From assembly GCA_009602735.1 (NCBI GenBank), contig WELA01002985.1:509527-544784 (forward strand): a DNA stretch of 35,258 bases, written 5' to 3'. The notes beneath the pieces were generated by a model, which made no database searches, was not told where the DNA came from, and saw nothing but the letters and a program-made list of their open reading frames with translations. Below are positions 2,424 through 28,820 of this stretch, piece after piece (the stretch's first letter is position 1; every line of letters begins with the position of its first letter). The position numbers and the translations under genes were made by a program. The DNA comes from Mesotaenium endlicherianum. Lineage: Eukaryota.

Positions 2424-2483
2424 GCCCGTGACTGCTCTCGTTCCACGTGCTTGCTAGGACCTACGCTGCCGCAAATTGCTGCT

Positions 2484-2957: not shown

Positions 2958-2967
2958 CAGCAGGCCT

Positions 2968-5035: not shown

Positions 5036-5048
5036 CGCTTTTTCTATT

Positions 5049-5871: not shown

Positions 5872-6630
5872 GGATTTTTGAGTTTGTGGCAGATTCTGGG
5901 CCAACTTGTACAATTTTCTTTATCATTAAGGAGTAGGCTAGCCAATAAGGTCACACCACCCACGACCTTGCCTAGTCTACCTTACATGTGTAGCACTTGA
6001 CTTGGCGCCTTTGACTAGTCCTCTTCACATGTGTGGCATCTGACTTGAAACTGTTGACTAGTTTGCTCCACATGTGTAAGACCTGACTTGACGCGCCGAG
6101 ACGTCGCTTTTTCTATCGGGGGGGTGATGTAGTGATTTGAGTTATTATATATTAGTTTGCATATATTTTGATGTTTTCAAATATATTTGGAGTGGTATTG
6201 TGTGGATTCAAGTGTGAATAGGTACTCTAGTAACTTGGTTCATGTCCTTTGAACCTTCTAAGGCATTTTCGAAGTTAGAGGAAAGACCTAGAAGAACTCC
6301 ACGTGGCAAAAGTCAAATGTGCCATTTTTAGGTCAAAAGGACATGTGTACATTATTCTAGAAAGAGGTGGCAAGTTTTGGGATGTGTTGGGTGCCAACAC
6401 ATCAACATACACCTTCCTAGAAATTACTAATTTAGTAAGTATATAAACAAGAGCTAGAACATAGAAAGACATTCCAGAATCACTCTTGTACTTGCCAAAA
6501 TATAGAAATATATTAACTTTCAAGAAGCCATCTCTCTTTCAAGAAGCTATCACTTGTGTTCAAAGATCCTTGTCTTGAATAGATAAACTATTCTGTTTTA
6601 CTAAGTACTTTATCTATCTGTTTCACTACA
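5872..6630 (+). mobile_element. Second family-B 3' end: partial 3' UTR, PPT (6118-6127) and LTR (6128-6630)
   Basis: Highly similar to ~4804-5560, with the same termini. No PBS or coding sequence lies between the two LTRs. Confidence 0.9.
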
Positions 6631-6680
6631 GTATATCATCTTGCTGATATTACATTCTATATACAACTGATATATAAATC

Positions 6681-6796
6681 TCAGCAAACTATACTATGAT
6701 ACAAAAGTCATCCTGCTGACCTTCTCAACAAAGTCAGCAAACTACACTATGATACAAAAGTCATCCTGCTCACCATTTTGACAAAGTAAGTAAACT
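6681..6796 (+). repeat. 53-bp tandem repeat (2 copies + partial)
   Basis: tcagcaaactaYactatgatacaaaagtcatcctgct... starts at 6681 and 6734; degenerate third start at 6787. Confidence 0.85.
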
Positions 6797-8007
6797 TGCA
6801 TTACATCGACATACAGTCGTTTAAATGAACTCGCGCATGTGAGTATATTGACATAATACTTATTTAGTGTTGTATTTATACATGCAATTAATTAAATAAA
6901 TAATGAACTGACTCATTACACCCGCACACCTGGCCCACCCACAAAAGCTCTCTATGCTCTGAACTTGGAGGGCACTTGCAAGTCTGTGTCACTCTGGGGC
7001 TGGAGAAGGGAGCGGGGTGGGAGGAGCTGGGGGAGGATGGGGGAGGGTGCAGACTAGCATTGCCACGCGCTGTTAAAACAGGGCTTTGCAGTGTCACCCT
7101 TGAAATGGCTGCAGTGCTCTTACTACAGCCCTGTGCTTCGACAGACAACAGGTATAAGCGTTAAATCAAACCTCCTTATTCCTAAACCAGAAACGTACGG
7201 CTTCTGCCTAAACTTATCATAAATGTGAATTTTAACAGCCCTTGCCCGTGGCCCCTACCCCCTTGCCAACGCCCCCCAACTGCCGGCTCGGTGCATCGCC
7301 CCCAGGTCGGTCTTCTGATTGCTATAGGGCAGATAAAAATTACTGAGGAGGCGTGATGACGACTGTCAGCTGGCACGAGCGTGCGGGCCAGAGCATGGCT
7401 GGACTTGACCGGCTCGCTGGCTGGGTGGCTGGGTGGCGGGCTCCATGGTGCAAATGGATGGTGGTGATGCATTGCTGACTCTACAACACCCTGCTGTCGT
7501 TTACTTGCTACATGCCATGAGAGTGGTTGGCAAGGACACTTGTGGCCCCCTCGTGCATGCGTGCGGCCCAATCCCACACGCCTCACCATTCAAGATTTGG
7601 CTAGGATTGCACTAAGGGATAGAGCTAGGCTAGCTAGGGATGAGAGTTACTGGCCGCTCCCCAGGGCATCAGGGAGGGATGAGTGGGTGTGACTGCTTGC
7701 GCACGGCATACAGGCGGTAAAGCTGGTGGAAAAGGAGGGGCAGATGATTAAGACGGAGCTGCAGCAGCAGGTGAGCTCTCTGTCATTGCATAGATCACGT
7801 GTCATTGGAGCAAAGGCAGTCTTGCAGTGCGTCCAAACCTACATCAGAGGCCGGCTGGAACTTCTCCACCTTCAAGCTGAGTCGAAGTCCTGTCAAAGCA
7901 GGTGCTTGCGCATGCAAGCCTAGCGTGGCGCCCCTGTGTACGTGTCAGTGCACTAGTCAAGTGCTCCTTCTGTTGATGCTTGGCTGCCGACGGATAATTG
8001 CTGGCTG

Positions 8008-8752
8008 TGAAAGGGGCAGAGTGCCCTAGTGGAAGCGTAGTGACTCACGAGGAAAAGAACTAGTTGCAATCATACTAAAGAGTGCAACGACATATCACTT
8101 AAGAAAGCTTAGGAAAATAACTCAACATTTTGAGTAGCAAGAAACTGCTCACAAGTGATGTAGAATGAAAGGCCTTGTCATTACAAACCCGTAGAAATAT
8201 ACAGAAGTGAAAACTGAAAAGAAACAAAGAAGTTATGCCTATTTATAATTTTCTGCCTAAGTGCTCCTCCCTAGGAGGAAGCTACGGATTTTCCTAAGTG
8301 TTTGTCAAATCGTCCCTTCCAGAATATTCGTGAATAAGCCAGATCAGTCTAATCTGACGTGTCGGGCCGAATTGACGTCCACATACATGCATCGACATTA
8401 CTAGAATATTCTATCTCAGACGCGCTAGGCTAAACCGAAACTTCTAGGTAAATCGACCTAGTCGACACTCCGCGTCAGCCGAACTTACGTGAAGGTTCAA
8501 GTTCACACGAACAGGCCAGATCGCTTGACGCTGTCGGTCAATCCCGCGGTCGCGCTCACCGCGAAGTAAGGACAGTCGTCAACCGACCTCAAAACTAATT
8601 AAACTTCAGAAATCCGTAACTCTCTCAACTCTTCACCAAATTTGATGAACTTTATATCAAAATGACCACAAAAATGCAATCTACACTTCTATGCAATCAA
8701 ATTATACTTTCATGAAACTCAAGAATGCACTCTATAAACCTATGATCTTACA
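8008..8752 (-). mobile_element. Solo LTR of Gypsy family A with 5-bp target-site duplication
   Basis: Homologous to 1680..2423; TG...CA termini; GGCTG on both sides (8003-8007 and 8753-8757); no PBS or PPT adjacent. Confidence 0.95.
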
Positions 8753-9212
8753 GGCTGCTTTTCGCTGCTGCACATTCTTATTCAGCTTTAATTGGTATGT
8801 GTCTGTGCAGTGGTTGTGGAAGTCAGCAGACACTTGGTGGTGTGCTTTATTTTGTCATACAACATGTGAGTGCAGGTCACATCTACGCACACGTTGCTGC
8901 AGTTAGTGGGTGTGTGGAGCAATGGTGCAGCCATCGGTATTCGTACCAGGCGGCCCATCAAATTAATCAGCAAGACTTCGATAAAGTAGACATAGAGGCA
9001 CAGAGGTTGCTCATAGGAGATAGTATTTGGACCTTGGAAATGTATTCAAAACATTAGCGAAACTGGACTGGATGTGTTGTTCCGCATATCAAGCCTCAGA
9101 GTGCTGATGATGTCGACTACGGCTGCCGTGAAGGCTGAAGAATGTGCACTACTAAAGCGACGGTTATTGTAGGTCATACTTCTCAAATTGTATCTAGGTC
9201 AGAATGTGACCT

Positions 9213-10429
9213 CTAAATCTTGCCAAAAGTCCGTCTACTTACATCGCTAACCAAACATATCGTGCAACCATAGTGTGGTCCATTGTCTAGCCGTGCGGCT
9301 GGGGGCTGGTAAGCGCGGTTTCGCACCAACTTGTCCAGCAGGCCCTTTGCATCCATCTCCCCAAGCTCGCAGAGGTCTTTGAGACACTCGTCCAGCATTT
9401 CCACGACCCCATTGCCCTCGTCGCCGTCGTCGCCACGGCTGGCCCCTGGCATGCCGTGAGGGCCCCCAGGACGGCCATCCCACCAGGCTGTGGTGTTGTC
9501 CTCCCCCATCTCGATAGCCAGAGACTCCTCAAGCTCGTTGAGGAGCGTGTCCTCCTCGGGCTCGTCGCAACTTCCCTGGTCCTATCCAGCCCGCACACCA
9601 TCCTCCTCCGCAACGGAATGCTCCTTGGCATGCTGGGCCACCTGGGCGTTGTCCTCTTCCTCCTCAAGATTGTGCTTGGCGAGCAGGTCAGCCACGCATG
9701 TCGGCGCTGCCCAAGGGACACCCTTTGGCAGGCTGGCCAGTGCGGCCTCACTCGCAACCCCCTCGAGAACAAGCCGCCTGTAGTCGTACAGGCCGAGCTT
9801 GCACTGCCCCACCCCTAACGTGCCCAGCCCCAACATGTCCGTGTTGAGGAGGCGGTGGCGCGCAAATCACTTGACTGCCCGAAGCTTGCAGCCCAAACCT
9901 CACAACAAGAGAAAACAGGAGAAAAACGTGGTCAAGGGGCACGGGAAAGTAGCGGTGCACACGCACCCTCCAAGCCCAACCTGACAGCTCCCATGCACAA
10001 ACACCAACTAAGCAGCAGACGGGCAGCCAAGTTGCTAGCTCACACGCACACACACCAAACAAGACAGTGAAGTTGTGGCTTGAATTACGTTAAGGGCAGA
10101 TTGTGCAAGGGTACTTACTTCTTCTCGATGGCAGCAGCCTCCCTCTCCCTGCTGGCCGCGCGCTTGTCCTTGCCCCCATCCTTCTCCTCCACCTGCGGCC
10201 TGCTGCCAGGGGCGTCCACTGATGCGTCAATCGCCACCCCCTCGACGCCCCCGCCCTCAATTTCCTTGCGTGACTCCACGTTGGCCCCGATGCGCTCGAG
10301 CTCACCCTTTAACGTCCTGTAGCATTCAGCGAGGTCGGGTGCAAAGGTGAACACCGCAACGTTGCTCACGCGCCCAGCGAGCTTCCTCCTCTCCGCTTGC
10401 AACAAGTGCACCAACCATTCATCCCACAA
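9213..10429 (-). pseudogene. Two decayed coding exons (charged/acidic, unknown function); probably the C-terminal exons of the YR-1 gene or a third gene of the element
   Basis: Exon WDEWLVHLLQAERRK...AAAIEK ends at a GTAAGT donor (~10118). A second frame ~9885..9213 stays coding-like through in-frame TGA (9867-9869) and TAG (9582-9584). Confidence 0.55.
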
Positions 10430-10841
10430 GCACCATAAAAGCGATTAGCCACACGCGCCAGTGCGTTGCCACACGCGTGGGACACCAGCCGCGACCGTAA
10501 ACGCTTGCCACACAGCTGAGCATTGCAGCATTAGGAGTGGAGGTTTGTCCTCTACAGACAAAACAACACAAGCATCAAGCATGCTCTTGTGAGGGAGAGG
10601 CACTTATTTAACACGGGCTACGACAAATCACGACGCCGCATAGACATTAGGATTAAGCTAATCCAGAATCGGTATCGGGTGTAGGGTTCGCACACGACCT
10701 TTAGGCTTCACAAGCAAAGTCAAGGTACAAGCAAATTAGGGGTAGGGTTTAACGGTCTGAGCTGGCTGGCACGGCAAGCCCCAACGATAAGCCAATGCAA
10801 GAAAGAGCAATTGCAATCAAGATGCCCTCAGCGCCCACACA

Positions 10842-13800
10842 CCTTGCAGAATTTTGCCCGCTCTTCTGAGAGCTTTTTTGTTCCCTGCTGCAGAGCGTCG
10901 CCCTGTTGATGAGTGTACTCAACGTGCTTGTCCTCCCCGAGCCCGCTGCTCTGAAGCGCTTCGAGCATCCGCTTGAGCTTTTCAATGTCGTCCTCCAGCT
11001 TCAGGACGTCCACTTTGGCTTGCAGGTCCGCCAGCTGTTCCCCGGCCTACTCTTTGACCACGTGGAGGGAGCCGCGCTTTGTGACACCCGTGCCAAGATG
11101 CACCCTGGGCTCGAGGGGGCGCACGTCCTTGTTGTTGGCCCCAGCCTAGACTTGGCCCGCGGCCTCGGCATCCTGCCCATGCCCCTTCTTTCCCTTCCCC
11201 GTTTGCTGCCGCTCCAGGTGCTCGCGCTTGAGACTGGCAAAAGTGTCTTGGGTGAGCATAGTCAGCAGGACGTCGAGCGGAGGGCCCTAGTCAACGTTTC
11301 TCCTGATGCACATGGCTGGCTGCGCGTACGGCTTCAACCCAGCAGCGCTCTGCGTCTTCTCGACGGTGTGGCACACCCGCGCAAATGCGTCCAGCGTCAG
11401 CAGGCCGTTGTTTGCCCTGCCCGCGTGCAACATCTGCTTGAGGCACCGGCCGCTCCGTAGGCTCTGCGCCGAGTAGGCTGCTGCAACGTATGGCGGGAGG
11501 CCAGCATACTCCATCTGGCAGCGAAGCCAGTAGCGGGCGAGGTCCCTGGAGAGTTGCAACCAAGAGACGCACACGCGCACAAACACAAAGGTCAATGTAC
11601 GACGACATTGAGCTCGGCAGCAGCGACAGCGAGCTCGGCATCGACAGCGACAGCCAGCTCGGCGGCAGCAACAGCGAGCATTGCAAGAACAACATTGACA
11701 GCAACAGCGAGCTTGGCAATAGTAACAGCTACACGACAGCAACATCGACAGCGAGCTCGGCAGCAGCGACAGCGACAGCAACAGCGACGACGAGCTCAGC
11801 AGCAGCAACAAAGACAGCGCATCGACAACAAAAGAGAGTTCTGCGGCAGGTGACGTCGAGGGCAAAGCACTTGCATGGGGACGACGTGAGGAAGCACAAC
11901 AAGTGTGCGAGGCCACGAGGACACGCACCGTGCACACGAGACGGAGTCACACTTGACAAGTTGCTTGAAGGAGCGACAGAACAAGGTCAATGGCGCCTAG
12001 AGTAACTTACCGGCACCAGGGGGTTCATGTCCTTGTCCTCGACGAGCAAAAATAGGAAGTAGTGGAGCTTGTCAGCGCGGATCTTGAAATTCATCTCACG
12101 GACGGCAGCCTCTAGGGAGCTGTTGCCTGCTGCCCACGCCTTCAAAAACGACACAAAGGCCACCAAAGTGCGCACGGGACAATACCTGCGTGCACGCAAG
12201 TGGCCGGCGGACCATTGTGTTTATTAGATGGCTGGCTGGCAGGCAGCTGCTGCCTCTAGCGGACAAGAGACCGCAGGTGGCTGGTGCGTGCACGTAGCGC
12301 CGGTCCTCTAGAAACTCCTCGACGCGCGCCTTGCGCCGGCCGGCCCGACGGGTCCTGTCGTGCTTGCGAGCCTTCCGGTCGGTCACCGTCAGGATGGCCT
12401 CAAGGTGGAAGGACCCGTCGTGTGCCAGGTATGGACGGAACTCGACGTCCCGCAGCCGGAGGAGCTCCATCGAGTTGGGCCGGAGCGCGGCGCACACGGA
12501 GAGCTTGAGCAACATCTTCATCACAAGGCCCCGGAGCAGGGTGGTGTTGACGCTGTCGACGACCATCTTGTAGACATCCATCGTCATGGCCAGCTTCCGC
12601 TTGGGCCTCTCTGTGCCTCGCGTGCTGCCAGCCAAGTCAGTCAGTCAGCGCAGGCTGTGAGTGTTTGAGTGAGGTCACAAGCACAACGGGTCTCAGCAAG
12701 GGGGGCTTTATGCTGAGGGCAACAAGAGCGACATGAGGAGAAACGTGGGGGGGGGGGGGCTTGGAGGAGCGCGTACCGCATGATGAAATCAAGTTGCGCC
12801 TTGAACATCTTGTTGAAGTCGTCCATGGACTCCTCCATGTACGCGCCCTTGGCTTGCTTCTTGCCTAGAGCAAGGTAGGCCCGGGCTTGGTAGCACAACT
12901 CAAGCGTGTAAGCCCACATGTAGCCGTTGCCCCCCCCCCCAGCAAGAGCATCCACAGCTTGAAGGTCTCCCGGTCCATGGGCAAGGGCCCCAGGTCAATG
13001 ACCTTCTTTGGCCACTCCTTCTCCTTGGCCCTCTCCGCCCAAAAGTCGGCCACCATCTGGAACAAGGCTGCCAGGGCCACTGCCCTCTTGAGAGCAGCCT
13101 CCTCCGTGAGCTGCAGCGTCTCCGTGCGAAAATCCTGCACGATCTTCTCCCGCTTCTTGGCGGGGAGCTTTTTGAGCCCCTTCATTGCCACCACCGGCTC
13201 GACGAGCTTGATGTCGTGGTTGGCCCCGCGCACCAGCGCCTCGGCCGCAAACTCGAGGCACTTGCCGAGCGTGCTGTCAAGAGAAGCGTAAGGGGTGAAG
13301 GACCACGAGGCCATGACCTCCGTGAGGAGCTTGTCGTCGCGCGCGGTCCAGTCGCGCAAGATGGCATCCGCATCCTTCGGAGAGTACGCTGTCATATCAC
13401 GTGCGTGCAAGAAGTGAGTGAGGAAGGGATGCGAAAGGACGGGCAAAGTCTGGGGGGGAGGGGAGAGACAAAGACGAACTTAGACCTGCTGCACCGACGA
13501 CGCCCCACAAAGTAGAAGACATAGCACACACGTAGAGGTAAGAGGCCAGGCTCGAACAATACTCACTTTTCGAGGGGCTGGCCGTAGCGGGTTCGTTGGG
13601 GGGCTCCGTCGCTGGTGTCACCGACGCGGGAGCAGCATCGAACGACGGGGCCGGGGTGGCATAGGTCACGGCGCTGCCGCTCGCAGGCGGGGGCAACGTG
13701 GCCGCATTGTCGGCGTACAGGCGGCGCCCTTTAATCCCCCTGGGCGGCTGCGTCTGCGGGGGGGAGGGGGCCTGCACGCTCGCTCTGACGCTGGTGGCGG

Positions 13801-13927
13801 AGGGCAAGCCGGCGAACTCCGGCTGCGCGGCGTCGGAGGCGCGCCGGAAGGACCTCATCCCCGGCGGCAGGACGGGCAAGGAGGAGCCTGCGCCGCCGCC
13901 GTCCGGTGCTGCACTCAGGCGGGCCAC
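10842..13927 (-). pseudogene. Spliced tyrosine recombinase gene YR-1 (Crypton/DIRS-like YR domain)
   Basis: Box I AALRPNSMELLRLRDVEF (Arg 12480-12482); Lys candidates in TVTDRKARK; YCPVRTL; box II EYAGLPPYVAAAYSAQSLRSG (QSLR 11455-11466); candidate nucleophile GLKPYAQPAM (Tyr 11326-11328). GT-AG introns (donors at 13566, 12776, 12010). In-frame TAGs at 11287, 11146, 11047 and a frameshift in the C-run ~12930-12940. Confidence 0.8.
11595..11830 (+). repeat. Low-complexity CAG/CGA/CAA-rich minisatellite within a YR-1 intron
   Basis: Recurring acagcgagctcggcagcagcg / cgacagc / caacagc units. Confidence 0.75.
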
Positions 13928-14087
13928 GCGTTAGTTACGTGTTAATGTGGCAGCTCAACAAAACATCGCGAGCAATGTAGCAGCGGCGCCCAGCCTGTCA
14001 AGGCTAGGTGGTAGGCTAAAATGTGCAGGGGCTTGATGCAAAGAGGCGTTTGCACCGCCAAGTGCAAAAGGGGCCGGATAGAGGGTC

Positions 14088-17000
14088 TCACGCTCGGTCG
14101 GCAAACGCATGCCCGGCGGGGTCTGTCCGGCGTCGGACGGCAGGCTGCGCGAGGGGGAGGGAGTGGACGCCGTGGCCGACGAGGTGGCCAACCTCAAGCC
14201 GGAGGAGCTGGCAGTGCCTGTAGCGGCCGTACCACGCCAAAGCCGCGAGGTCAATGGGTGAGTGACGCACAACAAGCCTCTTCACTCACGCGTGCAAGGG
14301 AGGGGGACAGTAAGAAATTGCAGCCAGGTTAAGCCCGGCACACTCACCGTCGGAGCTGGACGAGCCAACGTGGTGCCGCCCCTTGCCCTTTTTGCCCTTG
14401 CTCTTGTGCTTGCTCCAGCTCTTGCTCTTGCTCTTGCCCTTGCCCTTGCCCTTGCCCCTCTTCTTCTTCCGCTTGGGCGAGGGTCCAGCCTTGCTGGGTG
14501 CACCCGGCGCCCCTGCCGCTGCTCCCCCCATAGCAAGCAAACACACGGAGGCACACACGGCCCGCGAGAGAGGATGAGCACGGGTTGGGGCTTCTAGGGT
14601 GGAGCAGCACGAGTGAGAGGCCCAAGACCACATACACAGAGATAAACACGGAGAGAGCGCGTGGTAGGCGGGTTGTTGTGAGCAAGGCGGGGCGATGCTC
14701 AACGAGTCTCACCTCGCTTGCCGCCTGTGCCCTTGGGGGGGGGCGAGGGCCACGCCTCGGGATTCCCTTCCGCTACGCTCGCGGCTGCGCAGCACGGAGA
14801 GAGGGGCAAGAGGCGAGGACGTTGTGTGAGTCAGCACCACTGGCCGGCGCCAATATTGCATTCTGCCGCCCGATCTGGGCCAGGACGTGGCACACGCGGC
14901 AACTGTGGGGGTGGAAGGGGCGGGCGTACCTGGTGGGGCCGAGTGAGCGGCAGGCGCGACAAGGGGGGCAAGAGGGGCAGGTTCTACGCCCAGAGGGTCT
15001 GGCGCTCGCTCAGCGGCCTGCGCTTGGGCCTGGGCCTGGTCTGCGTGGGGGTCTGGCGCTCGCTCGCCGGCTTGGGCCTGGGCCTGGCCCTGGCCCTGGG
15101 CAGCGGCCTTGGCCTGTGCTTGGGCCATCTTGTTGCGCTTGGGCTCGCCTCTCTTCGTGTAGGTGTCACTCAACATGTTGACGGCCCTCTGAACCTGGTC
15201 CTTGAGGTTCGTCGAGAACCTGCGCACATGCACGCGGCTCCGACGAGGTGCGGAGCGAGTGACGAGTGGGACGTGTGGCAGCATCGCACGGCGGCGACGG
15301 AGAGCAGAGCAAAAGCAGTTAGCCTAGACGCGGGGCACTACAATGGGGGGGTCGGAGGTCTGGTAAGCGTATTCGTTGCTGATCCTCAATCGCATGGCGT
15401 CGGCCTCCTCCCTCTCCTTGTCGGTCACTGCCGGGTCTCTGAGCTTGGCATTGAGGGCGTCGCGCTTCTGCCTGTTCTTCTCGAGGTTGGCAATCAACAT
15501 GTTGAGCTCTTCCAGCAGCTCGGTGTCCCCCCTCCCAGTTGCGTACTCCCTCATGACGCGCTGCGCCTCTTCCCAGCTCATCGCGAGCTCTGCTGCACAT
15601 CCGGCCAGGAGACAGACCCCACCCTACACGGCGATGCAAAGTAAGCATCCCATCCCCGGTGCCTGCCGTGCTGTGCGCGCAGGAAGTGGTGGAGGCTAGA
15701 AATAGGAGGGGCACCGCGCCGACTCATCGTGATTGCGCCCGGGCAAGCCCTCCTTGCGCCTGGTGACAGCCTCCTGCATAGTCCTGACCTCCCGCCCCAC
15801 CATGGTGAGAGTCTCCTCTTTGGGCCCCTCGCCTGCCTCCTTGGGATGATCTTCGAAGCGCGTGGCCCTCCCTCCTGCGCAACGCAGTCACCCTGCGCAC
15901 GGCGGGCAGGGAGCGGGCCACCACCGGTCACGCGCCGCTGGGCACCAGCAGCCAGCCTGTCGGTCAAAGATGGAGGTGCGCGCATGCATGCAGTCTGGGT
16001 TGGTTGCCGGGGAGGGGCACTCACTTGTTGGACACCTCCTTGCCCCAAGCCTGCGCCTTGGCGTCGCCGCTGTACTCGCACCTATCTTTCCCCACCGGCC
16101 TGTACTCGTTGTGGTGGTCCTGGAGCGCCTCCTCCGCCTCGCTCAGATCCTGCAGCATCTTGTCGAGCTTGGGATTGTTCTTGCCCTTGAGCACCCCAAT
16201 GGTGTGGGGCAGGTAGTTGTCCCCGCCTGCACCGGCCAGCAAAGTAGCACAAAGAGGCCAGGGGGGGGAAAAAAAGAGGGCGGCGGTCAGCAGGAGCACT
16301 GCAAACCGTGAGACGGCATGATGGGAGAAAAGTACAAAGCGAGCAAAGTAAAGAGTGGGTGAGGTGCAAAGCACTCACGCGCCCCCTTGGCGGCCACAAC
16401 CCTGGCCCTGTCAACGTCCGTGCGTATGATGTCGCGGTCGCGCTGGTGTTGCTTGCGGTTGCCCCTGGCCTTTGCTAACTGGTGGGCCATCTGATTGCAG
16501 GCCGCGCCCGGCACGTGCTGACCCTTGGCCACCAGATCGCGCGCCATACCTGCCGCGCGCACCTTCTCGCTCCCCATCTCCGCCGACACAATGCGCCCGG
16601 CGGCATGGTGCGCAAGCGTCAGCGTGTAGCGGCCGCTCTGCCCGGGGTCGTGCGACAGCGGATTAAACCCCTTGGCCTTCACGCGCTCCACCTTGCGGGG
16701 GTCCTGCTTCAGCTCGGCGGGTATCTCTACGGACACGTCGCTCTCGTCGGAGCCTGGCACGAAAGCGCACGACCAGATCCGCGTGCGCGTGAGGATGAGG
16801 GCAGGGAGGGAGGGAGGGAGAGGGCGAGAGAGAGAGAGCGAGGAGGTACACATGTCGTGCGACGGCGTGAAGCAAGCATATCAAAGGCACGGGTAGCCCA
16901 CAAGTGAGGCACGATGCACCTCACCAATTGAAAAAAAGGATCGAGCGCGCACAGCGAGAGTTGGGCGCCGCACTCACCTCCGAGGTAGTCGTGCATACTC

Positions 17001-18346
17001 GGGCGGGCGAGGTCGATCGCCGGGCCGAAGTAGCAGTCGAACATGGAGTTGGAGATTTGGCTGCGCCACCCGCACCTGTCTGCCAAGTCGCGGATGATTG
17101 TGAACACGTCGAGATAGCCCTTTTGCTCGATGACGTGGATGGCCGCCTGCGCGCCAAGTGCACATCGTGGGAGGGGGGCGGGGGCGTCAATAGTCCACCA
17201 GATTGGAGGCAGCCCAAAGCACGCGCGGCAGGCTTCTGGCAGCACGAAATCCGCGCAAAATCTGGAGCAAAACGACGGAGAGAGATAGGGGACCTGCTCC
17301 ACCGTGCCCTTCCGTATGCTCTGGCTGGAGAGCTCGTCGGGGCAGATGCTGGCGTACTCGGCCATTGCCTTGATCTCGCGCGTGAGGGCGTACTCGCTCC
17401 ACTGCGCGCAAGGGGCGCAAGGGTGGCAGGGGCAGGAAGGTCTTCATCATCAAGCAAGGCGCGGGACGGCGGGATGTGCCAGATCTGGACTGTCATAAAA
17501 GTGGCATGAGCGCGCGGACACTCACCGCCTCGCGGGTGTAGCCGTTGTCACGCGTGGCCACCAGCACGAGGTCCTTGAGGCACTCAGGGCAGATCTCGTA
17601 GTTGGCGCGGGGCGCATCGTCGCCCCGCGCGCGGGCAACCACAAAGGCGCCGCGCGCCTTGAGCATGACGACAAGCCAGCGGTGCAGGTTGAAGGGGGCG
17701 TCCGTCCTGCCAAAGGCGGCCTCCCGGCGGTTGCCCTCCTTTCAGGTGTTCTTGTGGGGGTCGATCTGCGAAGGGAGCACCCCCAAACGAGCGCGCACCA
17801 TGCAAGTCGTCGTCAGCAGGCAGGTGGCTTGGGGGGGGGNGACAGCGATAGTGCCAGGAGAAAGAAGTCAGCGCGAGCACTACGCACTTGCCACACGACC
17901 AGGCTGGCCTCGCCGCCGCCGCCACCGCCGCCGCAACCGCTGTCGTCATTGGAGATGGAAGAGATGCGCAGGTCTTCCAGGCGGGTCTTGAGCAGGTTGC
18001 GGACGCGCGCCCCCGCCTTGTGGCCCATGAGAAGCATCAGCTCGTTGACGACGTCGCGCGGGATGTCCTCCCGCAGCGGCGCCAGCATGAGCTGCACGTC
18101 GCAAAGGATGAGGGCGCGGCGCCTATGTGGGTGCTCGACGGGGTACAGCCGCAGGCACACGTTGCGCGCGGCGCGGGCCTCCTCTTTGAACTCCGCCATG
18201 GTCCCCTCCACCGGGGGCGGGTCACGGCTCCTCAGCCACCGGAGGAATAAGGTGTCCATGTGGACGAGCGCTTGCCGTCGCGCAGCCAGCGCAGGAAGAC
18301 CGCGTATGTCTTGCGGGATATGGAGCCGGGGAAGCCGGCGGACAGC
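14088..18346 (-). pseudogene. Spliced tyrosine recombinase gene YR-2: catalytic domain and long C-terminal region
   Basis: Box I GHKAGARVRNLLKTRLEDL (Arg 18005-18007); DPHKNT (Lys 17751-17753, followed by TGA 17742-17744); EYASICPDELSSQSIRKG (QSIR 17312-17323); LADRCGWRSQISNSMFDCYFGPAI (Trp 17066-17068, Tyr 17030-17032). Phase-consistent GT-AG introns join the catalytic exons; later exons give helical, Ala/Gln-rich and Lys-rich segments. The 3' end is approximate. Confidence 0.82.
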
Positions 18347-18347
18347 N

Positions 18348-21300
18348 GACTCCTCCATGTACGCGCCCTTGGCTTGCTTCTTGCCTAGAGCAAGGTAGGC
18401 CCGGGCTTGGTAGCACAACTCAAGCGTGTAAGCCCACATGTAGCCGTTGCCCCCCCCCCCAGCAAGAGCATCCACAGCTTGAAGGTCTCCCGGTCCATGG
18501 GCAAGGGCCCCAGGTCAATGACCTTCTTTGGCCACTCCTTCTCCTTGGCCCTCTCCGCCCAAAAGTCGGCCACCATCTGGAACAAGGCTGCCAGGGCCAC
18601 TGCCCTCTTGAGAGCAGCCTCCTCCGTGAGCTGCAGCGTCTCCGTGCGAAAATCCTGCACGATCTTCTCCCGCTTCTTGGCGGGGAGCTTTTTGAGCCCC
18701 TTCATTGCCACCACCGGCTCGACGAGCTTGATGTCGTGGTTGGCCCCGCGCACCAGCGCCTCGGCCGCAAACTCGAGGCACTTGCCGAGCGTGCTGTCAA
18801 GAGAAGCGTAAGGGGTGAAGGACCACGAGGCCATGACCTCCGTGAGGAGCTTGTCGTCGCGCGCGGTCCAGTCGCGCAAGATGGCATCCGCATCCTTCGG
18901 AGAGTACGCTGTCATATCACGTGCGTGCAAGAAGTGAGTGAGGAAGGGATGCGAAAGGACGGGCAAAGTCTGGGGGGGAGGGGAGAGACAAAGACGAACT
19001 TAGACCTGCTGCACCGACGACGCCCCACAAAGTAGAAGACATAGCACACACGTAGAGGTAAGAGGCCAGGCTCGAACAATACTCACTTTTCGAGGGGCTG
19101 GCCGTAGCGGGTTCGTTGGGGGGCTCCGTCGCTGGTGTCACCGACGCGGGAGCAGCATCGAACGACGGGGCCGGGGTGGCATAGGTCACGGCGCTGCCGC
19201 TCGCAGGCGGGGGCAACGTGGCCGCATTGTCGGCGTACAGGCGGCGCCCTTTAATCCCCCTGGGCGGCTGCGTCTGCGGGGGGGAGGGGGCCTGCACGCT
19301 CGCTCTGACGCTGGTGGCGGAGGGCAAGCCGGCGAACTCCGGCTGCGCGGCGTCGGAGGCGCGCCGGAAGGACCTCATCCCCGGCGGCAGGACGGGCAAG
19401 GAGGAGCCTGCGCCGCCGCCGTCCGGTGCTGCACTCAGGCGGGCCACGCGTTAGTTACGTGTTAATGTGGCAGCTCAACAAAACATCGCGAGCAATGTAG
19501 CAGCGGCGCCCAGCCTGTCAAGGCTAGGTGGTAGGCTAAAATGTGCAGGGGCTTGATGCAAAGAGGCGTTTGCACCGCCAAGTGCAAAAGGGGCCGGATA
19601 GAGGGTCTCACGCTCGGTCGGCAAACGCATGCCCGGCGGGGTCTGTCCGGCGTCGGACGGCAGGCTGCGCGAGGGGGAGGGAGTGGACGCCGTGGCCGAC
19701 GAGGTGGCCAACCTCAAGCCGGAGGAGCTGGCAGTGCCTGTAGCGGCCGTACCACGCCAAAGCCGCGAGGTCAATGGGTGAGTGACGCACAACAAGCCTC
19801 TTCACTCACGCGTGCAAGGGAGGGGGACAGTAAGAAATTGCAGCCAGGTTAAGCCCGGCACACTCACCGTCGGAGCTGGACGAGCCAACGTGGTGCCGCC
19901 CCTTGCCCTTTTTGCCCTTGCTCTTGTGCTTGCTCCAGCTCTTGCTCTTGCTCTTGCCCTTGCCCTTGCCCTTGCCCCTCTTCTTCTTCCGCTTGGGCGA
20001 GGGTCCAGCCTTGCTGGGTGCACCCGGCGCCCCTGCCGCTGCTCCCCCCATAGCAAGCAAACACACGGAGGCACACACGGCCCGCGAGAGAGGATGAGCA
20101 CGGGTTGGGGCTTCTAGGGTGGAGCAGCACGAGTGAGAGGCCCAAGACCACATACACAGAGATAAACACGGAGAGAGCGCGTGGTAGGCGGGTTGTTGTG
20201 AGCAAGGCGGGGCGATGCTCAACGAGTCTCACCTCGCTTGCCGCCTGTGCCCTTGGGGGGGGGCGAGGGCCACGCCTCGGGATTCCCTTCCGCTACGCTC
20301 GCGGCTGCGCAGCACGGAGAGAGGGGCAAGAGGCGAGGACGTTGTGTGAGTCAGCACCACTGGCCGGCGCCAATATTGCATTCTGCCGCCCGATCTGGGC
20401 CAGGACGTGGCACACGCGGCAACTGTGGGGGTGGAAGGGGCGGGCGTACCTGGTGGGGCCGAGTGAGCGGCAGGCGCGACAAGGGGGGCAAGAGGGGCAG
20501 GTTCTACGCCCAGAGGGTCTGGCGCTCGCTCAGCGGCCTGCGCTTGGGCCTGGGCCTGGTCTGCGTGGGGGTCTGGCGCTCGCTCGCCGGCTTGGGCCTG
20601 GGCCTGGCCCTGGCCCTGGGCAGCGGCCTTGGCCTGTGCTTGGGCCATCTTGTTGCGCTTGGGCTCGCCTCTCTTCGTGTAGGTGTCACTCAACATGTTG
20701 ACGGCCCTCTGAACCTGGTCCTTGAGGTTCGTCGAGAACCTGCGCACATGCACGCGGCTCCGACGAGGTGCGGAGCGAGTGACGAGTGGGACGTGTGGCA
20801 GCATCGCACGGCGGCGACGGAGAGCAGAGCAAAAGCAGTTAGCCTAGACGCGGGGCACTACAATGGGGGGGTCGGAGGTCTGGTAAGCGTATTCGTTGCT
20901 GATCCTCAATCGCATGGCGTCGGCCTCCTCCCTCTCCTTGTCGGTCACTGCCGGGTCTCTGAGCTTGGCATTGAGGGCGTCGCGCTTCTGCCTGTTCTTC
21001 TCGAGGTTGGCAATCAACATGTTGAGCTCTTCCAGCAGCTCGGTGTCCCCCCTCCCAGTTGCGTACTCCCTCATGACGCGCTGCGCCTCTTCCCAGCTCA
21101 TCGCGAGCTCTGCTGCACATCCGGCCAGGAGACAGACCCCACCCTACACGGCGATGCAAAGTAAGCATCCCATCCCCGGTGCCTGCCGTGCTGTGCGCGC
21201 AGGAAGTGGTGGAGGCTAGAAATAGGAGGGGCACCGCGCCGACTCATCGTGATTGCGCCCGGGCAAGCCCTCCTTGCGCCTGGTGACAGCCTCCTGCATA

Positions 21301-23359
21301 GTCCTGACCTCCCGCCCCACCATGGTGAGAGTCTCCTCTTTGGGCCCCTCGCCTGCCTCCTTGGGATGATCTTCGAAGCGCGTGGCCCTCCCTCCTGCGC
21401 AACGCAGTCACCCTGCGCACGGCGGGCAGGGAGCGGGCCACCACCGGTCACGCGCCGCTGGGCACCAGCAGCCAGCCTGTCGGTCAAAGATGGAGGTGCG
21501 CGCATGCATGCAGTCTGGGTTGGTTGCCGGGGAGGGGCACTCACTTGTTGGACACCTCCTTGCCCCAAGCCTGCGCCTTGGCGTCGCCGCTGTACTCGCA
21601 CCTATCTTTCCCCACCGGCCTGTACTCGTTGTGGTGGTCCTGGAGCGCCTCCTCCGCCTCGCTCAGATCCTGCAGCATCTTGTCGAGCTTGGGATTGTTC
21701 TTGCCCTTGAGCACCCCAATGGTGTGGGGCAGGTAGTTGTCCCCGCCTGCACCGGCCAGCAAAGTAGCACAAAGAGGCCAGGGGGGGGAAAAAAAGAGGG
21801 CGGCGGTCAGCAGGAGCACTGCAAACCGTGAGACGGCATGATGGGAGAAAAGTACAAAGCGAGCAAAGTAAAGAGTGGGTGAGGTGCAAAGCACTCACGC
21901 GCCCCCTTGGCGGCCACAACCCTGGCCCTGTCAACGTCCGTGCGTATGATGTCGCGGTCGCGCTGGTGTTGCTTGCGGTTGCCCCTGGCCTTTGCTAACT
22001 GGTGGGCCATCTGATTGCAGGCCGCGCCCGGCACGTGCTGACCCTTGGCCACCAGATCGCGCGCCATACCTGCCGCGCGCACCTTCTCGCTCCCCATCTC
22101 CGCCGACACAATGCGCCCGGCGGCATGGTGCGCAAGCGTCAGCGTGTAGCGGCCGCTCTGCCCGGGGTCGTGCGACAGCGGATTAAACCCCTTGGCCTTC
22201 ACGCGCTCCACCTTGCGGGGGTCCTGCTTCAGCTCGGCGGGTATCTCTACGGACACGTCGCTCTCGTCGGAGCCTGGCACGAAAGCGCACGACCAGATCC
22301 GCGTGCGCGTGAGGATGAGGGCAGGGAGGGAGGGAGGGAGAGGGCGAGAGAGAGAGAGCGAGGAGGTACACATGTCGTGCGACGGCGTGAAGCAAGCATA
22401 TCAAAGGCACGGGTAGCCCACAAGTGAGGCACGATGCACCTCACCAATTGAAAAAAAGGATCGAGCGCGCACAGCGAGAGTTGGGCGCCGCACTCACCTC
22501 CGAGGTAGTCGTGCATACTCGGGCGGGCGAGGTCGATCGCCGGGCCGAAGTAGCAGTCGAACATGGAGTTGGAGATTTGGCTGCGCCACCCGCACCTGTC
22601 TGCCAAGTCGCGGATGATTGTGAACACGTCGAGATAGCCCTTTTGCTCGATGACGTGGATGGCCGCCTGCGCGCCAAGTGCACATCGTGGGAGGGGGGCG
22701 GGGGCGTCAATAGTCCACCAGATTGGAGGCAGCCCAAAGCACGCGCGGCAGGCTTCTGGCAGCACGAAATCCGCGCAAAATCTGGAGCAAAACGACGGAG
22801 AGAGATAGGGGACCTGCTCCACCGTGCCCTTCCGTATGCTCTGGCTGGAGAGCTCGTCGGGGCAGATGCTGGCGTACTCGGCCATTGCCTTGATCTCGCG
22901 CGTGAGGGCGTACTCGCTCCACTGCGCGCAAGGGGCGCAAGGGTGGCAGGGGCAGGAAGGTCTTCATCATCAAGCAAGGCGCGGGACGGCGGGATGTGCC
23001 AGATCTGGACTGTCATAAAAGTGGCATGAGCGCGCGGACACTCACCGCCTCGCGGGTGTAGCCGTTGTCACGCGTGGCCACCAGCACGAGGTCCTTGAGG
23101 CACTCAGGGCAGATCTCGTAGTTGGCGCGGGGCGCATCGTCGCCCCGCGCGCGGGCAACCACAAAGGCGCCGCGCGCCTTGAGCATGACGACAAGCCAGC
23201 GGTGCAGGTTGAAGGGGGCGTCCGTCCTGCCAAAGGCGGCCTCCCGGCGGTTGCCCTCCTTTCAGGTGTTCTTGTGGGGGTCGATCTGCGAAGGGAGCAC
23301 CCCCAAACGAGCGCGCACCATGCAAGTCGTCGTCAGCAGGCAGGTGGCTTGGGGGGGGG
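18348..23359. repeat. 5,012-bp apparently identical copy of 12828..17839 (offset 5,520); probable assembly duplication
   Basis: All ORF translations recur at +5520. The copy is delimited exactly by single Ns at 18347 and 23360, and copy 1 ends at the N at 17840. Confidence 0.95.
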
Positions 23360-23360
23360 N

Positions 23361-23756
23361 CCGGGGGCGGGTCACGGCTCCTCAGCCACCGGAGGAATAA
23401 GGTGTCCATGTGGACGAGCGCTTGCCGTCGCGCAGCCAGCGCAGGAAGACCGCGTATGTCTTGCGGGATATGGAGCCGGGGAAGCCGGCGGACAGCCAAT
23501 CGTGGCGGCCCGGCCCCTCGTCGCTGTCCTTGCCTTTGCCCTTGGCGGTGTCGTCACTGCCCTCCCCGGCCACCCGCTCGCGCGCGAAGAAGACGATGAG
23601 GGCGAAGAAGCACATGTGCAGCGTCTTCATGTAGTGGCCGAAGGAGCGGCGCTCGCCGAGACTCTGCTCCTCCTCGGCGGCCCCGGCGGTGGCGGCGGCA
23701 TCGGCCTCGGGGTCCTTGAAGTGGCCTTCCTTGCGCTTGCCCTTTCCTGCTGGCAT
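23361..23756 (-). pseudogene. N-terminal coding exon of YR-2
   Basis: MPAGKGKRKEGHFKDPE...GFPGSISRKTYAVFLRWLRDG. 23361-23496 is identical to 18211-18346, so it joins directly to the box-I exon once the duplication is collapsed. Confidence 0.7.
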
Positions 23757-25361
23757 ACTATACTGCATGCAACAAGCGGGCAATAAACAAGGTCAGCGCG
23801 CGGCTCTGGTTCTCACAGAAGCTGGCAGAAGTGGTCGTATGTCTTGCTTGGCAGGTAACCTTCTAGAGTTCAGGGGTAGATGGCGCTCTTCGATGAAAGT
23901 CGCAGCAAAGGTTGGCAAACTAGTTAAGTGTCTTTAACTGCAACAACACCAGAGGTGAGCATACCAAGGGAGCTACTGGTGTGCTTTTTTGCGAGCCACG
24001 AGTCATGTTGATGCATGTCCATTGCACCTTCAGGTTAGGTTGTGTTCAAGCCTTGCCAAAAGTGGGTGCAGCACGCCCATGCATCACAGAGATTAACATG
24101 CGTGCATGGTGTGCACAAAACAGAGGCTGGCAGATTCTCGGTTCGTCGAGCCAACATCATGGACCAGGGCATGAACGTCCGCAAGAAGGCACAGATCGAG
24201 AATGCACTCAACAATGACAGGGACAAGATCCGTGAAGCACAAGTCAACAGAGGCAATTACGTGTACAAATGAGAGATGTATACAAATGAACATGCATTTA
24301 TAAGTAAGCACATACAGAGTTATGTACTCTTGCGCAGATTTGTGTATGCTTCGTTGGGTGCAAGTGACGGATCGGCTGGTTGCAGCCCGGGAAGAAGACT
24401 CAGAAGAGCGGGAGGGACGCAGAGACGAGTGGGGCAGACGTAGAAGAGCAGGTGCTGCAGTCGCTGGCGAGCCCTGCATGCAGTTTGCTCCACGCTGGGG
24501 CACAACCGCTGCCATGGCAGAGGGCAGCACGTTCTGCCTCCACTCCACTTGCTAAGCTGGCAGCCGCCAGACTGGGCCGTGTCACCCGCACTAGCAGCGC
24601 CCCCGGTCAAGAAGAAAGAAGAAGCATACTGCTCTGCTGCACCTGCACAGCAAGGCCCTAGCCCCGTGGGATGGCGGCAGCCCTGGCCCTCTAGGTACTC
24701 TGACAGCAATTAGATGCAAGACTGCAGGCTGCTGGATCGTATATACTCAGCTCACTCAATGTGCATGGCTGGAATGAGAGGGGATCTGACCTGACCAATT
24801 GCCCAGTCCCTTGCTTCTCTTCCTTCTAAAAAGGAGGCGCCATATCCACGCCCTGGCCGCCTGCCTGCCTGCCTGCCTGCAAGCCTGCAAGCCAGCCTGG
24901 CGCGCATGGCTTGAATCCGATGCGGGCTCTCCCTAGCCTCCTTCCCGCCATCAATCGCCCTAGCCCGCATCGAGGGTGCCGGCGCCATCTTCTTGCCCAC
25001 AGTGCCATCTCTCTCCGTGTCTTGCCACCCGCCCCCTCGATTGCAGCAGCAGCAGCTGTGCAGTGCCACTCCATCCGAGAGGAGGCATGATTCTACTCTG
25101 TCGTAAATCTTGATGGAAGCGTGACGATGACTTAACGAGATACGCATTGCAAATTCTATCTTAATAAATGGATGCATTCTAGATTCGAATCTGCTCTGCT
25201 TGTCGTGACATTATTTCAGCAGCTAGAGTGGGACAAGCTTGATTAAGCCTCAGATAGACGCTATGAGTGGGCACGCAAGCAGTGCTAGAAAGTGCGAGTG
25301 TGTGCATGCATGCATGCAGGACGCGAGAGCACCAAAAAAAAAACAAGAGCAAAAATAGGGG

Positions 25362-25591
25362 GACTCCGATTAGAAGGCACGGGCTTGTGACTGAGCGAAA
25401 GCAATGCGCACGCTAGCTATAGCTAGAGCTGTAGCTATGATCGAAGGCTCTTTGCTCTTTTGGGCCATTGTGCGTGTCCGAGGGGTGTGAGTCCGAGTAT
25501 GTGCTGGACTCCGATGACTCCGATGTGACTCCGATCTTGTCGGAGTCGCACGGGACGGAGCCAAACAAAAAATGACCGGCGAATCTCGCCG
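25362..25591. repeat. Cluster of GACTCCGA(T) motifs and short palindromes upstream of YR-2
   Basis: GACTCCGAT at 25362, 25507, 25516 and 25527; inverted TCGGAGTC at 25540-25547; CGGCGA-atc-TCGCCG at 25577-25591. Confidence 0.75.
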
Positions 25592-25852
25592 ATCGAGACT
25601 GTCGGCCCGTCTGCCCAGGGCCAGAAGTCTGACCAAAATGGGCGTGTCAGGTCAGGTGGATAGTTTACGTGAAGAGTGTAGGCAGAATTTGAAGCGATGC
25701 CACCCCCCAAAAAGGGCACTTTTGTGTGCCTGCCTCTAGGCCACAGTCGGCCAGTGCCCAGACCCCAGCGACCAGTTTCTCACTGCCGCACACCACAGGA
25801 CCGTACTTGATCAAATGTCACGGAAATTCATACAATATGCATGTACAAGAGC

Positions 25853-26928
25853 GCGAGCCATTCACATGTTTGAGCCCAAATTGCCACACGATCCATCGCC
25901 CACGTGTACGGGACGATCCAAAACAGGATCCAGGCTGATCCAGGCAGATCTAGGCCGCCGGCAGGTTTCGTTCGCGCTGCGCCCGGACGGGGACAAACAT
26001 TGTCATAGGCAAACCGCTCCCAACATGATACGTGACACGAACATTCCAAAGAGGTAATTGTGACGCCGATTGACACGCGTTTACATGCAAGCTTGTTAAC
26101 TTGCTGACACCGTCGCCGAGGTAACCCGCTAGCTCCCACGGGAGCGCTATATAAGTCGGTGCACCTGGTTGATTCGGCAAGCGTGCGGATAAGCGTGCGT
26201 GGACAACGGGCCCACACAAAATCTTGGACGTGCTCATGTGGGGGAGGAAATTGTATTCCCATACATCTTATGTGCGTATGAACTGGTGTTTATATGCACA
26301 CATGACGATGTGCATTCATGCATGCGCACTCACTCGCGTATTTGCATGCAAGCATGACAAGTTTGCATATGAGTGTACATATGTCGTGAAACTCAGCCTA
26401 CAGGTGAGCGACGTGTGCATGGTCATTTCGTTGCACATATACACATTCACGAGGAGCGTGCAAGAGCTCTTTTGTGAGAGTGCAAATGAGAGCGCTTAAG
26501 TGCGTGTATATGTGAGGGCGCGGACAAAATGTGCAAGATTCATTGAGCGGACACACAACCATCCCATGGAAGCCATTATGCATGTACAAACATGAAAATA
26601 TGCTCCGCGTTGCAACGTTCACCATATCCAGTAGGTTACGTTCCTAGTCATCACTTTGAGAATTCCTTTCAATAAATTACATGTTTCTGTGAACATAATT
26701 AGTACTTTTATTGAGAAAATGCACAATCTACATTATGCCTTAGCTTGTGAAAATATTAGTTTTATAAGTGAATAGATACTCTCAGTCGGTGTATCCCTAT
26801 TTTGATAATTCGCCCGTACAATATCTTTTGGCCGCACACTACAAAATGTAATGTTGTAAAGTCGTACGCCATAAAGCTCGTATAAAGTAACTGTCCTATC
26901 TATAACCAATTCATAACCAGTTTAAATC
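25853..26928 (+). repeat. Left arm of a ~1.07-kb inverted repeat
   Basis: Reverse complement of 34111..35183; mirrored ORF translations (25828..26262 - versus 34775..35188 +). Similarity is lower towards the inner end. Confidence 0.92.
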
Positions 26929-27064
26929 GCTGACACTCACGTATTACGCCAAATTGCGACGTATTATTTTGGTAACCACGTATAACACGCATGGTATATA
27001 CGCACAAATATGTAAGACATATCCGTATATTACAAACTTCAACTAGGAATGTTTCGAAAGGACA

Positions 27065-27066
<2 letters not shown>

Positions 27067-27118
<52 letters not shown>

Positions 27119-27129
27119 NNNNNNNNNNN

Positions 27130-27202
<73 letters not shown>
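27067..27202. repeat. (CT)n microsatellite with an internal N gap
   Basis: Direct reading; Ns at 27119-27129. Confidence 0.98.
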
Positions 27203-27204
<2 letters not shown>

Positions 27205-27532
27205 TGTCATGCACGTCCTTGTCGAGTACCTTTAATTTCTAGTAATAGGATAAGAGGGTGGAGAGTCGATGTCAGGTCTTAGTGATTAGTCGGGTTAGGG
27301 GTGGTAGGTGAGGAGGGTCTAGACTGTGGGCAGTGGTGGTGAACACTGGGACCCATGGTCTGCTCAGGAGGTTCTGCTGTTGAGCAGCTGTGAGGCACCC
27401 CCAAATCACGCGCTCTTTCTCTACCTCCACATGTGGTGTTGCCGCCCACACGTATGGGGGACGACCCTCAGGTTTGCTCGCCTGAAGGGTCGGCGCGAGT
27501 ACCCAGTAGGATCCCCTATTGTCCATGGCTAG

Positions 27533-27996
27533 TTTAACGATCCGCCATGTGGCCGATTGCGGCGCGTGCGACACGTCGCAGATGCGGCCGGAAGTGTCGG
27601 TTTGAATTGTATAAGTACAACTCGCGAGCGATCTAAGTACCTCGAGTTACCTTTTTGTTCGTATCAATGGTATCGGAGCGCGAACGTACGCAATCGTTTG
27701 CAAGAGACGAGGATTCAAATCCTGCGAGGTGCAAAACTCATCGATGGTACGACTGTACGGCGATCTTTGGATTGTACAAAAAAAGGACACTATTCCAAAA
27801 CGATGTCCTTCGCGCCGCCGCGGCATAAGTGCCGGGACGTGCACACTTGTAGGTGGGATGAGTGTAACAATTTGCCACGTGGCCGGTTGCAGCGCATGCG
27901 ACACGTCGCGGATGCGGCCGGAAGTGTCGGTTTAGATTGTATAAGTACAATTGGCGCGCAATCTAAGTACCTTGAGGAACCTTTTTGTTCGTATCG
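27533..27996 (+). mobile_element. TRIM-like miniature LTR retroelement (464 bp)
   Basis: 134-bp direct repeats 27533-27666 and 27863-27996 (about 19 mismatches by eye); PBS TGGTATCGGAGC at 27668-27679; purine-rich AGGTGGGATGAG before the second repeat; 196-bp non-coding interior. No clear TSD. Confidence 0.8.
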
Positions 27997-28588
27997 CTTT
28001 AGCGAGACCATTACATACCATAAGCAATCCCGACGGGTGTGTTGTTGTGTTCCCTAGAAGATAGGGAAAGTAAGAGGTGAGGAGAAGTTGGGTTACCTTT
28101 TGACTTGAGTCGTACGTGTCTGTGTTTGTCCTTTGTTTTGTACCCTTTCGTAATTAAAGTACACTTTCATTTGTGTGTTATGACGCGATGATGCATCTTC
28201 TGTAGTAGGTAGTGTTTCCTTTCACTTCGTAGGAGCTAAACATAGTTTGTGAGGGCACGCTCCTTAGGCCGCAAGCTAACACCATTCTGGTGTTAGCTTT
28301 GTATGTTCAATTTCATGAGAGTGATGATATTCTCTACGTTCGTGGTGACTTAAAGCTCATATTGTTCGATTGTGCCTTCTTGTTTTTCTCGCTTCTAGTG
28401 TAGGTGCTCGTAATGCCCGTCATGAATGCACAATAAGTCGAGAATACGCCCTCTCTCTCTCGGCCATAACATTGTCAATCGCTATTGCTCTTCCTCGTTC
28501 TTGGTGCTATGTTTCGCTCATTAGTTTAGCTTCCCACTTCCTTGCCCTTGCACGATGCCTAGCGCCTGCCGACAGCCTACGCTGCAAA

Positions 28589-28820
<232 letters not shown>

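Follow-up and report, generated by a model that had tools for sequence, protein, structure and literature searches.

A two-domain recombinase-like gene in Mesotaenium endlicherianum

The window considered here is a 35,258-nucleotide stretch of the Mesotaenium endlicherianum genome (contig WELA01002985.1 of assembly GCA_009602735.1, positions 509,527 to 544,784), the minus strand of which carries a long spliced gene whose predicted product contains two regions that resemble tyrosine recombinases (YRs), termed domain A and domain B. An initial annotation had assigned these to two tandem genes, YR-2 (domain A, ending near 14100) and YR-1 (domain B, starting at 13927). The motifs it quoted are all present, in order and on the minus strand, but both recombinase-like domains are encoded by one transcript in one reading frame and not by two genes, since RNA joints cross the supposed boundary and the frame is kept through every junction. 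The block is probably part of a so far undescribed type of mobile element, the enzyme of which would be a built-in pair.

The gene is interrupted in the assembly by a segment (18348-23359) that repeats 12828-17839 exactly over 5,012 bp with single Ns at both borders; in addition 18211-18346 is identical to 23361-23496. Contigs identical to the window have a depth of 65-120 inside the duplicated part (three listed) and 75-97 outside it (six listed). As the depth is not doubled, the duplicate is an assembly artefact, as had been supposed when it was collapsed in the initial annotation, so that on the minus strand 23756-23361 really continues into 18210 and downwards.

The chained frame comprises 1,995 codons from the ATG at 23756, in 19 exons separated by 18 introns, and predicts a single protein of about 2,000 residues (Table 1). 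Exons were chained with N padding at the three places where the RNA has extra letters (near 23418, 15869 and 12940). Fifteen introns are supported by listed RNA joints, that between exons 3 and 4 by a related protein (P0003, described below), the last by contig ends and the first by sequence alone. Coding sequence extends to approximately 9213-9290 with polyadenylation at 9026, so that the longer of the two 3′ ends offered for YR-1 (9213) holds and the shorter (about 10840) does not.

Table 1 Features of the two-domain gene and its flanks (positions in the window)
Positions	Strand	Feature	Basis
24788..25647	.	Upstream segment common to other copies, partly transcribed (24788-25370)	DNA contigs
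24120..24688	+	Pieces of host genes lying upstream; the first resembles part of an epsin/ENTH exon	
23361..23756	-	Exon 1, first part, from ATG 23756: N-terminal region of domain A and its predicted core-binding region	RNA covers 23361-23758
near 23418	-	Frameshifting deletion in exon 1 of the window copy	RNA has extra letters at 23418-23420
18348..23359	.	Assembly duplicate of 12828-17839, outside the biology	100% identity, N-bounded
16978..18210	-	Rest of exon 1 and exons 2-4: predicted recombinase domain A (YR-2)	Joints 17401/17526, 16752/16977
	-	Domain A residues: R201 18007, N204, K245 17753, Q347-x-x-R350 17323-17314, W383 17068, Y395 17032	
17744	-	Domain A stop in the window copy, codon 248	
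15149..16753	-	Exons 5-9, encoding a charged region of about 345 residues that follows domain A	RNA joints, chained frame
15149..16753	-	Damage to exons 5-9 in the window copy: 8-nt frameshift at 15869 and two damaged donors	
13567..15148	-	Ala/Pro/Ser low-complexity linker, residues 761-1070, with a Lys-rich stretch resembling a nuclear localisation signal	RNA joints, loose ends
13567..15148	-	Linker as five exons, one of them of 72 nt (14784-14713), through which the frame runs from domain A into domain B	
11290..13388	-	Predicted recombinase domain B (YR-1), including a predicted core-binding part	RNA joints, chained frame
	-	Domain B residues: R1323 12482, S1326, K1362 12365, Q1472-x-x-R1475 11466-11457, H1504 11370, Y1518 11328	
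12940	-	Domain B 1-nt frameshift in the window copy	
9026..11289	-	Exons for the last 450 or so residues (with five stops in the window copy), 3′ untranslated region and poly(A) site 9026	
8760..9025	.	Downstream sequence that another copy also has, as far as the compared stretch goes	Contigs

Transcript structure

Of at least 24 public sequencing runs considered, four DNA runs of one sample share 75-81% of the words of the window and 16 runs about 10%, none of the runs listed as sharing words being recorded as RNA; the other four, raw RNA runs, were added by species label. To the region 8760-18346 two raw RNA runs contributed 1,082 and 5,433 reads. These reads are mostly 90-99% identical to the window, and hence represent transcripts of a related copy (90-95% identical) rather than of the window copy itself, although RNA-type variants are also present in the DNA of the sample that has the window copy. 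A stranded run places the transcripts on the minus strand, and poly(A) RNA is steady in all four RNA-type runs examined (X12, X13, X21 and X24). The gene is spliced, as had been proposed: at least 14 RNA joints, among those listed (with 14 further rows), cover 15 of the 18 introns.

Four of the joints (14520/14929, 14216/14347, 13908/14092 and 13388/13569) cross the gene boundary of the initial annotation, and there is no ATG at 13927, the proposed start of the second gene. The 13908/14092 joint, of the GT..AG type, is found in 13 reads of run X21 and 78 reads of run X24. A 3,945-nt transcript contig (run X12, depth 311.4) carries joints from 10395/10842 up to 16225/16378 and extends from behind the catalytic tyrosine of domain A to near the 3′ end, while the 72-nt linker exon was revealed by loose RNA read ends. 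Two separate recombinase genes encoding two subunits, for which the 310-residue low-complexity stretch between the domains, an ATG at 13395 in the intron just before exon 14 and five molecules that start at 13742 in one stranded run could be invoked, are nonetheless highly improbable. The contig by itself is no proof of one transcript, but raw reads from two studies cover every junction between the two domains with the frame kept at each, no stop codon interrupts the chained frame between Tyr395 and Arg1323, and the only poly(A) end seen is at 9026. Nor is the pair explained by two adjacent and independent single-YR insertions, a possibility raised with the initial annotation.

Run X21, otherwise strongly stranded, contains many reads of the opposite orientation at 14840-16440 (up to about half of the main strand), and antisense RNA over the linker exons is possible. 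A joint at 17934/18320, seen in DNA and RNA, exchanges a 385-nt stretch containing box I of domain A for 20 other letters; it may reflect a deleted sister copy or a spurious GC-rich match and was not used.

Decay of the window copy

The window copy is damaged by three frameshifts, six internal stops and six altered splice sites (three donors and three acceptors), so that 12 of the 18 introns keep both GT and AG. All six internal stops are TGA or TAG, and in run X24 the window has A or T where the RNA has G or C at 234 sites and the reverse at 80; the copy has thus decayed largely by C-to-T change, a pattern for which methylation may have been responsible.

Identity of the two domains

Domains A and B each contain the ordered YR set of R, K, HxxR, H/W and Y with glutamine in place of the histidine of HxxR (His-II), giving R-K-QxxR-W-Y in domain A and R-K-QxxR-H-Y in domain B approximately 930 residues away, where the K, W/H and Y residues are assigned by alignment and order. 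The spacings between them are 44/102/33/12 in A and 39/110/29/14 in B compared with 28/88/23/9 in Cre, and the Glu-I position is occupied by asparagine in A and serine in B. Predicted secondary structure follows a helix-helix-helix-three-strand order. The two domains align collinearly over about 230 residues with a Smith-Waterman score of 83, against 36 ± 5 (maximum 63) in 500 shuffles. By this alignment they are diverged paralogues, consistent with the divergence that had been noted between the two motif sets.

The piece carrying domain B has its first protein language-model neighbours (Atlas) at 0.97 in eukaryotic clusters, and the sets listed for it include DUF3435 (11% of members), DUF3504 (31%), ResT/TelK (16%) and phage integrase (22%). 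A phmmer search with the domain A piece among 1.84 billion representative proteins yielded two matches. One real relative, P0003, is a Mesotaenium gene-model fragment (Mesen1) according to its source, matches the chain of exons 2-4 at 63% and 49%, and keeps K, QSLR and W; it has a tryptophan where the window copy has stop 248. The first Atlas match of P0003 is DUF3435 at 0.95 (94% of members), followed by NDC10_II and phage integrase. The other match, P0002, is ankyrin-repeat-like, aligns mainly to an in-frame intron and was discarded as spurious. A three-row profile built from A, B and P0003 was compared with a profile of 73 XerD-like proteins and matched it at box I with a score of 25.0, against a maximum of 17.2 in 40 shuffles. 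On the strength of the language-model neighbours, the weak XerD profile match and the order of the motifs, the assignment of both domains to the tyrosine recombinases is very probable.

The sole integrase match in PHROGs was phrog_216 (E 0.081), the region of exons 5-9 (about 345 residues) has no family match, and word-based protein searches with three pieces, which for longer proteins covered those up to 2,000 residues, gave none either. Scans of viral and metagenome contigs confirmed none of 17, 274 and 277 candidate stretches, phage tblastn and PDB sequence searches returned nothing meaningful, and Rfam and ARAGORN had no matches.

The variant catalytic residues bear on whether the domains are active. 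The H289Q change leaves Cre close to wild type, and E176N ranks with the strongest substitutions (PMC2943603). As Cre tolerates them, glutamine for His-II and asparagine or serine for Glu-I do not exclude activity, and both domains may well be catalytically competent. It is very unlikely that they are relics of the recombinase fold, or that only one of them is active, the protein binding DNA without recombining it through both domains. Such relics would account for the substitution of His-II and Glu-I in both domains, the H305Q change renders Flp severely defective (PMC2943603), the W-to-Y and H-to-Y distances of 12 and 14 exceed the 9 of Cre and XerD, and fold searches gave no recombinase match. 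Against this, all other catalytic positions are present in both domains, the glutamine is common to A, B and the Mesotaenium relative P0003, and Starship captains likewise vary at His-II (PMC10104507, PMC11162782).

Copies, flanks and ends

The DNA runs contain exon 1 contigs with 0, 2 and 44 differences, with a summed depth of 460-670 compared to 85-97 for the window copy alone; elsewhere the summed depth is about 150-510 and is maintained through the introns. Summed depth is not a copy number per se, and together with the distinct variants (copies seen as contigs with introns and flanks in common) it leads to an estimate of roughly three to six copies, which differ by approximately 1-15%.

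Sequence in common with other copies extends from 8760 on the left, which is the edge of the compared stretch, to 25647 on the right. Beyond 25647 begins a repeat with a depth of 2,000-3,000 and varied flanks, and other contigs have at least two other continuations. This position may be the end of the element or a truncation. The GACTCCGA motif occurs five times in the window, each time within 25362-25547 and in two cases in inverted orientation. The epsin-like piece upstream of the gene finds epsins in five of five PDB matches (best E 0.069). It lies in a segment of about 1 kb that another DNA contig skips (joint 23742/24814), that is partly of single-copy depth and that holds pieces matching other transcribed genes, and the fragments at 24120-24688 are possibly captured cargo. 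A captured epsin-like fragment and a subterminal motif cluster would be typical of mobile elements.

The transcribed part of the upstream segment (24788-25370) is common to other copies, and at 24788, beside what may be a donor site of the minus strand, 37 reads switch to sequence outside the window; it may be a 5′ untranslated exon of the expressed copy or part of another gene. A lox-like inverted repeat at 25524-25551 (10-bp arms, 7-bp spacer) was set aside as not significant alone, as 30 of 300 shuffles hold one.

No reverse transcriptase (RT) was found, as had been stated before: there is no Y/FxDD motif in six frames of the window, and no long terminal repeats (LTRs) of the unit were found within it. 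Another repeat cuts off the right end at 25647, the left end was not located, and DIRS/Ngaro-type retroelements occur in some streptophyte algae (10.1101/835561), all of which would be compatible with the gene being the recombinase part of such an element with its RT outside the window or lost. That origin is nevertheless scarcely probable, given the missing RT motif and LTRs and the retention of 18 introns in the DNA copies, which would fit poorly with copying through spliced RNA.

Comparison with known elements

Like Cryptons (CryptonF/S/A), the unit lacks an RT, has an intron-bearing YR gene, shows no terminal inverted repeats (TIRs) or LTRs and is present in few copies; among Cryptons, CryptonF has activity in a green alga (PMC3212892, PMC9977147). 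Cryptons, however, are described with one YR, with GCR1_C or a peptidase, whereas the window gene has two diverged YR-like domains in a frame of about 2,000 residues, with QxxR in place of HxxR, and 4-6 bp terminal direct repeats like those of Cryptons could not be shown, as the right limit of the common sequence coincides with another repeat and the left end was not reached. Starship captains (DUF3435) are the nearest named language-model neighbours and are similar in their variable His-II, long C-terminal extension and possible cargo (PMC10104507, PMC11162782). Starships are reported only from Dikarya fungi, with one YR and intact cargo downstream, while the window unit has only gene fragments, located upstream, and its pieces did not match the DUF3435 Pfam model. 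As the unit has neither the single domain of Cryptons nor the cargo and host of Starships it is filed in neither group, but it probably works like both.

The XerC/XerD and Tn554 TnpA/TnpB recombinases employ a heteromer mechanism. These systems and RIT resemble the window gene in that two different recombinases are predicted to act on one site or element, but theirs are separate prokaryotic proteins, whereas here a single spliced chain of a eukaryote contains both catalytic domains. In RitA, two core-binding domains accompany one catalytic domain (PMC8138268). DIRS/Ngaro/VIPER and ALOG-type YR retroelements share with the unit a eukaryotic YR and, in domain A, the tryptophan before the catalytic tyrosine (PMC3537659, PMC13465315); unlike these, it has no RT, RNase H, gag or long repeats (inverted or split direct) within the window, and many introns. 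Cryptons, Starships and DIRS-type elements are all described with one YR in the portions of text available (PMC3212892, PMC13465315, PMC10104507, PMC11162782, PMC3537659). The literature covered on Crypton, Starship and streptophyte YR elements contained no architecture with two YR domains, although Repbase entries, subscription reviews or supplements could hold one. Of the matches for tandem or double recombinase domains, one (PMC8989519) concerns DDE domains and another SCCmec.

Interpretation and proposed mechanism

Overall, it is reasonably probable that the unit is a low-copy, RT-less DNA transposon similar to Cryptons and Starships, with a single-chain two-recombinase enzyme and a decayed copy in the window. 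Of the initial proposal of a decayed Crypton-like element with two recombinase subunits, the two diverged YR-like units, the lack of an RT and the decayed multi-copy family are upheld, but not the separate subunits; mobile-element status is likely though unproven.

Several results weigh against this interpretation. Neither a terminus nor a terminal repeat, direct or inverted, nor an empty site came to light (common termini and empty sites had been suggested as a check), and comparison of 24801-25900 with 5501-9300 gave no terminal inverted or direct repeats. A YR fold is supported by the language-model features and profile searches but not by structure: three fold searches with low-confidence AlphaFold models of unspliced fragments (pLDDT 43 and 56) found no recombinase. 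Pfam searches with 16 and then seven pieces detected no YR family, including the DUF3435 hidden Markov model (HMM), a local HMM of 82 bacterial YRs gave domain A 3.6 bits (best shuffle 3.3; domain B not reported), and the A/B/P0003 profile was no better than shuffles against nine Cre-like proteins. P0003 covers domain A only, and the two-domain layout is known from one species. The expressed copy is seen at 40 of 833 substitutions and 12 of 24 indels listed, so that its frame and catalytic residues are not read base by base. Finally, steady poly(A) expression also fits a host gene.

Such a host gene, domesticated from a recombinase transposon to encode a nuclear protein that binds or resolves DNA, with extra copies (including that in the window) that would be pseudogenes spread by segmental duplication or capture by other elements, is unlikely but is the rival with the most in its favour. 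It would account for the 18 introns, the failure to find element ends, the occurrence in several studies of polyadenylated RNA from a related copy, and the position of the window copy among LTR and TIR element debris, and domestication of Crypton YRs is well documented (PMC3212892, PMC3537659). Yet the copies are about 1-15% apart, which suggests repeated copying over time, and R, K, R and Y are all retained in both domains, unlike in domesticated DUF3504 genes, from which the catalytic tyrosine has been lost (PMC3212892). Moreover no annotated full-length orthologue was found among the 1.84 billion representatives or in the word searches (longer proteins up to 2,000 residues).

Recombination by tyrosine recombinases needs four recombinase domains acting on two sites, and the enzymes act as tetramers of one protein (Cre, Crypton, Starship) or of two separate ones (XerC/XerD). 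For the transposon reading a more specific model is put forward tentatively and with rather less confidence than the reading itself, namely that the unit represents a new group of DNA transposons of streptophyte algae whose transposase is a single-chain heterodimer of two anciently diverged, active QxxR-type YR domains, a fused eukaryotic counterpart of XerC/XerD that is still expressed and can capture fragments of host genes. As four domains on two sites are needed two chains would suffice, and a synapse on asymmetric sites would obtain its four recombinase domains from a protein dimer. Each of the two domains, A and B, would take one arm of such a site, in the way XerC and XerD do at dif, and the assignment of the arms would fix the order of the two strand exchanges. 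With the long flexible linker the two domains would be able to contact either the two arms of a single site or the two element ends. Excision would yield a circle, and integration would take place at a short matching target, as in the Crypton model (PMC3212892, PMC9977147).

Surrounding repeats

The left flank of the unit is interrupted by a solo LTR at 8008-8752, which reads TG...CA on the minus strand and is flanked by a 5-bp target duplication, CAGCC. It is 88% identical to an LTR at 1680-2424, which precedes a Ty3/Gypsy gag with a zinc knuckle at 642-1529 on the minus strand; a separate integrase-SH3-chromodomain fragment lies at 3097-4286 on the plus strand. Two 95% identical AT-rich copies of about 757 bp occupy 4805-5560 and 5874-6630, and part of their sequence recurs, starting with TGTAGTG, at the right edge of the window (35184-35258), which is possibly another LTR.

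On the right, a repeat of very high copy number (depth 2,000-3,300) has its end at 25648-25852, which is preceded by varied left flanks, begins with CAGG and is possibly the terminus of a hAT or miniature inverted-repeat transposable element. Nested in the repeat starting at 25648 is a 9.3-kb unit (25853-35183) between inverted repeats of about 1,050 bp (92% identical), in which no long open reading frame was seen and which includes at 29200-33000 a mosaic of direct and inverted repeats of 60-580 bp.

Implications

Two different catalytic domains in one protein is a design sought by engineers of recombinases for asymmetric sites. If the proposed mechanism is true, one chain would settle both half-site identity and the order of strand exchange, which bears on how RT-less eukaryotic YR elements control excision and integration. 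An expressed and apparently intact relative of the window copy exists, so the enzyme can be cloned and tested. The finding would add an RT-less YR element, or its domesticated descendant, to the green-plant lineage closest to the land plants.

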